In this document: positions 48,320-48,498 of the stretch, piece by piece
How positions within the stretch are numbered: position 1 is the stretch's first letter
Layout of the letters: each line of letters opens with the position of its first letter
Source: Candidatus Limnocylindrales bacterium
GTDB taxonomy: Bacteria; Chloroflexota; Limnocylindria; Limnocylindrales; CSP1-4
Assembly (NCBI GenBank): GCA_049521175.1
Contig: JBEKPB010000006.1
Location: 41,296-105,295 of the forward strand
Length of the DNA: 64,000 nucleotides
Direction of reading: 5' to 3'
Notes under the pieces: generated by a model
Databases searched by the model: none
Seen by the model: only the letters and a program-made list of their open reading frames with translations
What the model was told of the DNA's origin: nothing
Made by a program: the position numbers and the translations under genes

Positions 48320-48361
48320 GTGAACAGGAACCTCTTCGACAGCAGCCTGCTCCTTACCTGA
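48320..48361 (+). CDS. Candidate leucine-rich leader peptide (GTG)[12 protein letters not shown]
   Basis: 13 codons, 4 Leu, ending with CTG CTC CTT ACC TGA 30 nt before a terminator hairpin upstream of leuA. No strong SD. Confidence 0.4.
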
Positions 48362-48391
48362 GGCGAGCCCCGTGTGGGTGCTCGCCGACGA

Positions 48392-48422
48392 CCTCCTGCG
48401 CCATCGCAGGAGGTTTTTGTTT
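48392..48422 (+). terminator. Intrinsic terminator (attenuator) in leuA leader
   Basis: cctcctgcg-ccat-cgcaggagg 9-bp perfect stem followed by tttttgttt. 77 nt upstream of leuA ATG, same strand. Upstream gene is divergent. Confidence 0.7.
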
Positions 48423-48498
48423 CCCCGGATACCCACCCCAGACCTCGCCCAGACCCCTACCGCCGACTCGGAACCCGCAGACAGAGAAGGAACCCGAA

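Follow-up and report, generated by a model that had tools for sequence, protein, structure and literature searches.

A conserved leucine-codon leader with two abutting hairpins upstream of leuA in Limnocylindrales: a probable attenuator with no detected anti-terminator

In a 64,000-nucleotide (nt) stretch of DNA from Candidatus Limnocylindrales bacterium (Chloroflexota; assembly GCA_049521175.1, contig JBEKPB010000006.1), which we refer to in full as the window, leuA, the gene for 2-isopropylmalate synthase, is preceded by a leader element of about 105 nt. The element consists of a short open reading frame (ORF) that ends in a run of leucine codons, a hairpin (P1) and an intrinsic terminator (T). 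We think it likely that this is a cis-acting, leucine-sensing attenuator that controls transcription of leuA by means of the ribosome, as a prediction made from the sequence (hereafter, the original prediction) had proposed for the leader peptide and terminator. The core of that proposal held, as the parts are kept in 76 of the 80 leuA loci from relatives. What the sequences show directly is the conservation of the parts, the covariation in both hairpins, their geometry and an exclusive association with leuA genes. That such an element is an attenuator will not surprise a specialist; the real and testable puzzle is the absence of a switch in the RNA combined with strict spacing.

Conservation of the leader and its hairpins

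Within the region 47700–48800 of the window, the leader ORF, P1, T and leuA all lie where the original prediction had placed them (Table 1). The 13-codon ORF begins with GTG and has four Leu codons, CUC at 48332 and CUG CUC CUU at 48347–55, the last three being consecutive at its 3' end. The GGCGAGC...GCUCGCC hairpin said to follow the ORF is also present, except that its first base directly follows the stop codon (a gap of 0 nt) instead of lying 2 nt beyond it. T has a stem of 11 bp once the flanking A-U and G-U pairs are included and lies 75 nt before the leuA ATG. As had been argued, it cannot serve the gene upstream of the leader, because that gene, which encodes a class I methyltransferase, is divergent and on the minus strand. 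A terminator scan by itself is weak evidence, since it returned one site where 0.4 would be expected in 800 nt. The LeuA encoded in the window is of the long form, with 867 bits against NF002991 and 820 bits, above the cut-off, against TIGR00970.

We compared the window with 80 loci that encode its closest LeuA relatives, taken from contigs of one genome per species. The nearest relatives belong to metagenome-assembled genomes (MAGs) of Candidatus Limnocylindrales/Chloroflexota, with 82–93% identity, and the next, at about 70% identity, to Acidimicrobiia and other Actinomycetota, Dehalococcoidia and Methylomirabilota/Rokubacteria; the phylum assignments are MAG labels. This ranking points to a Limnocylindria-like member of the Chloroflexota as the source of the window and not to an actinobacterium. 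A covariance model (R1) built from 74 aligned homologous leaders gave a single match in each of 77 of the 81 sources, namely the window and 76 of the 80 leuA loci. The positive loci carry the labels Chloroflexota, Actinomycetota, Methylomirabilota and others. In the window, R1 scored 73.5 bits (E = 2e-13), with no second match in the 64 kb. Nearly all the relatives share a layout of Leu run, one more codon, stop, GGCGAGC-type hairpin, CCUCC...GGAGG terminator and U tract. Unless stated otherwise, the counts below refer to these 77 leaders.

A second sample consisted of metagenome loci picked by the leader-core pattern only (Leu run, next codon, stop and P1 5' strand), and R1 confirmed the full element in 76 of the 80 loci listed. 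The comparison that the original prediction had called for, whether relatives keep the triple-leucine run and the terminator, came out in its favor in 76 of the 80 leuA loci and in 76 metagenome loci. The RNA family has more than 150 instances, mostly from uncultured bacteria.

Three to five consecutive Leu codons stand directly before the penultimate codon in 75 of the 77 leaders, and at these positions the leaders differ only by synonymous codon choice. The in-frame start, the Leu run and the stop are conserved, the peptide is 10–15 amino acids (aa) long in most homologues, and the N-terminal residues vary across the family. The codon after the Leu run is ACC, ACG or AUG in 73 leaders, and the base after the stop codon, which is the first base of P1, is always G or C. 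CUU makes up 45% of the leader Leu codons compared to 4.9% in the adjacent leuA genes, a nine-fold enrichment, and is the last Leu codon in 69 leaders. A slow or rare CUU codon is the choice that a stalling sensor would favor; the excess could be due to such a choice or to a constraint on ...CUUA... at the level of the RNA. Within the Limnocylindrales-type leaders (L001–L009; 48320–48346 in the window), the N-terminal part is conserved as M-N/T-R-N-x-F-D-S-S and includes an AGG codon for Arg, a codon expected to be rare at the GC content of the window.

The leader lacks a strong Shine-Dalgarno (SD) sequence, which the original prediction had already noted. In 10 Limnocylindrales-type leaders, T, A, A, C and T of the -10 hexamer are invariant at a fixed distance of 10 nt before the start codon, and CA is invariant at -4/-3. 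More broadly, a TANNNT hexamer lies 6–10 nt before the in-frame start in 46 of the 77 leaders, and TTGACA-type -35 boxes occur in several (L022, L027, L035, L011, L038 and L050). By box spacing only, the 10-nt distance in the lineage of the window suggests that 3 nt precede the start codon in the transcript. The leader ORF appears to be leaderless or nearly leaderless, and a -10 box positioned for such a transcript would explain why it has no SD sequence. Leaderless Leu leader peptides have been described upstream of leuA in Streptomyces (PMC8079986) and Corynebacterium (PMC5784534, PMC4046766).

Both hairpins show covariation. Compensatory changes were found in six of the eight modelled pairs of P1, where 96% of cells are paired, and in four of the seven modelled pairs of T. 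Doubly changed cells numbered 92; shuffling the columns gave 22 ± 7, and none of 500 such shuffles reached the observed number. Sliding the register halved the pairing. The top pairs by mutual information, after average product correction, all fall within P1 and T. Mean stability is -17.2 ± 2.6 kcal/mol for P1 and -19.1 ± 2.4 kcal/mol for T, and a U-rich tract lies downstream of T in the homologues as well.

The distances between these parts vary little. From the Leu run to the first paired base of P1 there are 6 nt in 71 leaders and 7 nt in the other six, and P1 and T are separated in the minimum free energy (MFE) structure by 0–5 unpaired nt in all 77 and by 0 nt in 31. P1 length is negatively correlated with linker length (r = -0.44, p = 6e-5, without correction for phylogeny). 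Because the two compensate for each other, the distance from the stop codon to T is nearly constant at 30.1 ± 1.5 nt, compared to a standard deviation of 2.2 nt expected under independence. A ribosome covers about 12–15 nt downstream of the first base in its P site. Given this footprint and the 6–7 nt spacing, a ribosome that waits for Leu-tRNA should leave P1 intact or nearly so, and one with the stop codon in its A site should cover the whole P1 5' strand. In masked folds of the window RNA, P1 was kept with a ribosome on the Leu run and lost with a ribosome at the stop codon.

A CAUA(U/G) motif recurs in many P1 loops of the Acidimicrobiia type (alignment A3, columns 37–46; for example GCCGCAUAUCGC and CCGCACAUAGG). 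This motif shows no covariation with the penultimate codon or any other region, and might reflect contact with a protein or the polymerase, or shared ancestry.

When we scanned the metagenome collection with the leader pattern, 91 matches had at least 350 nt of downstream sequence. Fifty-six of them precede a long-form LeuA N-terminus, and about 30 precede a gene whose product is 24–30% identical to the LeuA of the window. Three of these divergent genes were tested on NCBIfam and are short-form leuA (TIGR00973, 635–651 bits compared to a cut-off of 599). Examples are L115:4357-6055, L170:29-1718 and L107:2042-3822, from the metagenome loci L084–L203, about a third of which are of this kind. 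The remaining matches comprise three chance coding matches (TGG in place of the stop), one disrupted locus and one frameshifted leuA. In all, where a leader-picked locus extended far enough downstream, an isopropylmalate synthase gene followed in about 95% of cases. Attachment to a long-form leuA, as originally described, is therefore true of the window, but the same leader also stands before the short form; because both forms carry it, the leader travels with isopropylmalate synthase function and not with one gene lineage.

One metagenome contig (Ga0209415_10014035; L119:4610-4725, minus strand) has the same layout with an Ile run. Its leader, MSVPTAAVIIIE-stop, ends in the codons AUC AUU AUC GAA UAG, a 10-bp hairpin begins within the stop codon, and a terminator with UUUUUCAUUUUC follows. 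The gene downstream, about 120 nt away, is leuB (NF002898, 493 bits); the element has an R1 score of 31 bits and a fold z-score of -4.2. Occurring before two distantly related types of leuA and, with an Ile run, before leuB, the module looks portable.

MAGs labelled Chloroflexota, Actinomycetota, Methylomirabilota and others carry near-identical leaders, and one LeuA from Acidimicrobiales (L010) is 78% identical to the Limnocylindrales type. The likeness of leaders and LeuA across phyla suggests either horizontal transfer of leuA together with its leader or noisy MAG taxonomy. Of the four related loci without the leader, two (L063 and L069) have instead a small ORF resembling a zinc ribbon (CxxC...CxxC) directly upstream of leuA.

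Search for an anti-terminator

The original prediction had conceded that an anti-terminator pairing was not obvious by eye, and our search across the homologues bears this out. P1 and T abut but have no nucleotides in common, and no anti-terminator sharing bases with the T 5' arm was detected across the 77 leaders by duplex, covariation or ensemble folding tests. Duplexes between the Leu run and the T 3' arm were equally strong for cognate and non-cognate partners (-12.42 vs -12.39 kcal/mol), and 895 of 2000 permutations were as low. Pairing of the P1 5' strand to the T 5' arm did not exceed that of shuffled sequence, and the P1 loop gave no signal for pseudoknots with the T arms or the codon region. 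A mutual-information scan found no covarying helix beyond P1 and T.

We also folded the ensemble of each of the 77 leaders with one T arm blocked at a time. In the free RNA, T forms with 7.9 expected bp (mean MFE -40.5 kcal/mol). Blocking the T 5' arm shifts the 3' arm to the Leu run plus the 9 nt that precede it (6.1 expected bp, mean MFE -30.7 kcal/mol), which makes this region the second-best partner of the T 3' arm, about 10 kcal/mol weaker than T itself. With a ribosome mask at the stop codon, the freed P1 3' strand pairs weakly with the top of the T 5' arm (2.1 expected bp). In folding for mutually exclusive structures, which had been suggested as a check, P1 depended on the position of the ribosome, and no alternative to T was available with a ribosome on the Leu run. 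Given the lack of an alternative pairing and the tight geometry, the folding state of P1 is the sole thing that a ribosome can change.

Two other routes were considered and rejected. A frameshift or stop readthrough that would carry the ribosome into T is not supported, as the leaders split 32/24/21 over the three possible frames of T, all of them equally open. For T-box-like sensing of tRNA, no UGGN motif looked conserved by eye, and Rfam gave no match. An Rfam search of the leader at E ≤ 10 returned only noise, the best hit being Hrs13 with 16.9 bits compared to a gathering score of 52, and we found no description of this leader family in a search of the literature and Rfam.

Proposed mechanism and competing explanations

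We infer that the leader is translated, that the ribosome stalls on it and that the state of P1 is passed on to T. Transcription would begin about 3 nt before the GTG from the -10 box, and the leader would be translated without an SD sequence. When Leu-tRNA is plentiful, the ribosome would reach the stop codon, its leading edge would cover the P1 5' strand and P1 would melt; T would then fold behind RNA polymerase, and transcription would end at the U tract about 75 nt before leuA. With Leu-tRNA in short supply, the ribosome would stall on CUG-CUC-CUU, 6–15 nt upstream of P1, P1 would stay folded and more polymerases would read through into leuA.

How P1 would act on T is less clear. The two have no bases in common, so the coupling is not strand competition; a steric or kinetic coupling is possible, and we tentatively prefer it. 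The base of a terminator hairpin must enter the exit channel of the polymerase. On this view, P1, as a rigid helix, would sit at the mouth of the stalled ribosome, 0–5 nt from the base of T, and the RNA would be too taut for the basal pairs of T to be pulled into that channel; a melted P1 would free about 20 nt of single strand. P1 may also serve as a pause hairpin that is released only by a ribosome past the Leu run. Such a role would account for the constraint on the spacing between the stop codon and the conserved CCUCCU/G. The surroundings of CCUCCU/G match the consensus pause sequence poorly by eye. It is a rather doubtful proposition that the family forms a distinct class of attenuation without an RNA anti-terminator, in which a ribosome-gated P1 abutting T opposes termination sterically or kinetically. 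In such a class, ribosome, hairpin, terminator and polymerase may stand in a row, with the spacing held to ± 1.5 nt.

Several points weigh against a leucine-sensing attenuator. The main one, which tells against any simple reading, is that nearest-neighbor folding forms T at any ribosome position, so that the switch is invisible in the RNA. Consistent with this, a ribosome mask on the Leu run leaves neither T arm with a non-local partner in the ensemble folds of the 77 leaders. For the steric or kinetic coupling of P1 to T we can point to no direct support in our results and to no documented precedent. Transcription probably starts at 48317, a position that rests on the invariant CA and its 7-nt distance to the -10 box, and the length correlations are not corrected for phylogeny. 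The family is known from sequence alone, mostly from MAG contigs and otherwise from metagenome contigs. In S. coelicolor, which has a different, actinobacterial LEU element, mutations of the Leu codons before leuA reportedly had effects unlike those that classical attenuation predicts (PMC1262725).

One might suppose a classical attenuator whose anti-terminator is cryptic. Either the T 3' arm would pair with the Leu run and the sequence 5' of it, as in the base stem of the LEU element, or CAGGA near the 5' end would pair with UCCUG in the T 5' arm, and both pairings would compete with T. The Leu run does resemble the T 5' arm (CUCCU) and, with the 9 nt upstream, is taken up by the T 3' arm once the 5' arm is blocked; a nascent window RNA ending at 48401 also pairs the 5' end of the leader with the T 5' arm, where its CAGGA can pair with UCCUG. 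However, the Leu-run pairing falls about 10 kcal/mol short of T and shows neither cognate specificity nor covariation. It would also lie under the stalled ribosome, which gives the wrong regulatory direction, and would still put a stem directly before the U tract, while the CAGGA motif is limited to Limnocylindrales-type leaders. For these reasons we consider a cryptic anti-terminator improbable. Another reading is a riboregulator bound by a protein or by uncharged tRNA, as proposed for the LEU element, with the short ORF being incidental. The conserved sequence of the P1 stem, the CAUA motif in many P1 loops and the lack of a visible RNA switch fit this idea, and a protein was favored for the LEU element by Seliverstov et al. 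(PMC1262725). However, the start, the frame, the Leu identity with its synonymous variation, the single next codon and the position of the stop are all conserved in the ORF, while its N-terminal residues vary. Together with the lack of a T-box or other Rfam match and of an evident conserved unpaired core, this makes a riboregulator very unlikely.

Least of all do we credit an independent small gene, for a peptide or a small RNA, that has its own strong terminator, or a constitutive insulator terminator, in either case with a separate promoter for leuA. In favor of it, T appears to be efficient and meets no opposing structure in the RNA. Yet the spacer from T to the ATG is only 19–40 nt in several loci, no -10 box was noticed in the spacers that were read, and the leader accompanies two distantly related forms of leuA in about 95% of the pattern-selected loci. 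The Leu-codon bias, moreover, points to leucine sensing, and a leucine-sensing attenuator remains the reading that we prefer.

Comparison with known leaders and features of the locus

Leader-peptide attenuation of leuA is already known as a kind of system, but the parallel that the original prediction drew with E. coli leuL and Corynebacterium leuA fails in detail, as there is no Rfam match, no anti-terminator and a different layout. Classical trp, leu and his attenuators share with the leader of the window a run of end-product codons and an intrinsic terminator before the structural gene. The position of the ribosome changes structure here too, as seen in the P1 masks and expected from its footprint; their mutually exclusive anti-terminator was not detected here. 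The E. coli leuL leader forms mutually exclusive terminator and anti-terminator structures, is led by an SD sequence, and encodes 28 aa with the Leu run mid-peptide. In contrast, the ORFs of the window family appear leaderless, encode 10–15 aa and have the Leu run one codon from the stop. Attenuation without an anti-terminator occurs in E. coli pyrBI and pyrE, where termination depends on where the ribosome stands relative to the polymerase and the terminator, and the ribosome itself reaches the terminator and occludes it. Unlike in pyrBI and pyrE, the stop codon here lies 29–36 nt upstream of T and no conserved frame runs through T, so the ribosome cannot cover T.

Similar to the window, enterobacterial leuL (RF00512) and the LeuA leaders of Streptococcus (PMC5314783) have an upstream ORF with a Leu run and an intrinsic terminator before leuA, use rare Leu codons and presumably sense leucine by ribosome stalling. 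RF00512 gave no sequence or structure match to the leader of the window at E ≤ 10, and the Streptococcus leaders form mutually exclusive terminator and anti-terminator structures (PMC5314783).

The actinobacterial LEU element, or leuL1, resembles the window in having a Leu-run ORF, leaderless as that of the window appears to be, directly upstream of a long-form leuA in high-GC bacteria (PMC1262725, Seliverstov 2005; PMC8079986, S. lividans; PMC4046766, C. glutamicum cg4015; PMC5784534, C. diphtheriae). For comparison we used the leuA loci of M. tuberculosis, M. kansasii and M. shimoidei. The M. tuberculosis leader (L081:1069-1203) consists of TAAAGT, 7 nt and a GUG that begins the peptide MQRVLLLGRRDGV-stop. 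Six codons follow the Leu run, and the ORF continues through a first helix, CGCGACGGG/CCCGUCGCG, which begins about 5–6 nt after the Leu run, as in the window. Another helix, AGACCGG/CCGGUCU, is interleaved with it to form a pseudoknot, and the leader lacks a terminator with a U tract. This pseudoknot is absent in the window, where the helices are in tandem and the P1 loop did not pair with any other region in our tests. In the proposed base stem of the LEU element, the partner of the Leu run is the leuA SD sequence, whereas GGAGG in the window is the T 3' arm, 75 nt from the ATG, and leuA has an SD sequence of its own, AAGGA at 48487–91.

With its filters off, R1 found no match in the leuA leaders of the three mycobacteria. 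Homology to the mycobacterial LEU element was rejected, as none was detectable by this search and the M. tuberculosis leader has a pseudoknot and no terminator; the element of the window is thus a different design. The leaders of Streptomyces (MRFGLLLLSCRGEGL) and C. diphtheriae (MNRANLLLLRRGGSQA) have the mycobacterial layout, and they and other actinobacterial leuA leaders are reported to lack a typical terminator (PMC8079986, PMC5784534). In leaders of the Mycobacterium, Streptomyces and Corynebacterium types, 6–7 more codons follow the Leu run, compared to one in the window. The annotated leuA GTG of M. tuberculosis follows GGAG, and the annotated LeuA N-terminus is about 30 residues longer than that of the window, measured from the shared MPV..Y motif.

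The nearest two-part design is that of the leaderless polycysteine ORFs of mycobacteria (bioRxiv 10.1101/834739). Both have a codon tract at the 3' end of the ORF with ribosome occupancy as the signal, and neither has a classical three-stem switch. The polycysteine ORFs act on translation, and their tract pairs with a downstream SD sequence, whereas the output in the window is a terminator and the tract has no specific partner.

As far as the sequences tell, what is new in the design is the combination of an apparently leaderless ORF, a C-terminal Leu run and two abutting, independent hairpins with no anti-terminator. By MAG labels, our results suggest that leader-peptide attenuation of leu genes extends to Chloroflexota (Limnocylindria and Dehalococcoidia), uncultured Acidimicrobiia and Methylomirabilota; we found no such element described for Chloroflexota, Acidimicrobiia or Methylomirabilota in the searchable literature. 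Rfam does not contain the family, and for this reason neither the small ORF nor the regulator is picked up by annotation pipelines. With invariant parts, tight spacing and a length of only about 105 nt, the family lends itself to a clean test, provided by nature, of how RNA polymerase might be informed of ribosome position without strand competition. If a steric or kinetic coupling were true, it would add a mechanism to the attenuation repertoire, and the element would be a compact amino-acid sensor that could be re-coded, since Leu and Ile versions exist in nature.

Table 1. Features of the leuA leader region in the window (positions are those of the window).
Feature	Position	Strand	Basis
-10 promoter hexamer TAGACT (TAcACT in relatives)	48304..48309	+	fixed spacing before start codon
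predicted transcription start, A of invariant CA, 3 nt before GTG	48317	+	predicted from sequence
leader ORF, GTG, 13 codons, TGA at 48359-61	48320..48361	+	conserved frame, Leu run and stop
regulatory Leu run CUG CUC CUU (putative)	48347..48355	+	codon conservation
hairpin P1, GGCGAGCCCC (48362-71) / GGG.GCUCGCC (48376-86)	48362..48386	+	fold, covariation
linker GAC, P1 to T	48387..48389	+	fold
terminator hairpin T, core CCUCCUGCG / CGCAGGAGG, loop CCAU	48390..48415	+	terminator scan, fold
U tract UUUUUGUUU, first two U able to pair at the base of T	48414..48422	+	sequence
C-rich, G-poor spacer with leuA SD AAGGA (48487-48491)	48423..48498	+	GC skew, relatives
leuA, long-form 2-isopropylmalate synthase, ATG at 48499, 575 aa	48499..50226	+	profile match

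In the spacer between T and leuA, the GC skew falls to -0.51; the family mean is -0.18, with negative values in 56 of the 77 leaders. The C-rich spacer may keep the ribosome-binding site of leuA unstructured or may be a loading site for Rho. The SD sequence of leuA is kept in close relatives of the window. Across the family the spacer varies from 19 to 193 nt, and no conserved promoter was seen in it. Upstream of the leader, a tRNA-Asn (GUU) gene lies at 47169–47244 on the plus strand, about 100 nt from where the divergent methyltransferase gene has its 3' end, and in a scan of the whole window it was the sole Rfam match at gathering level.

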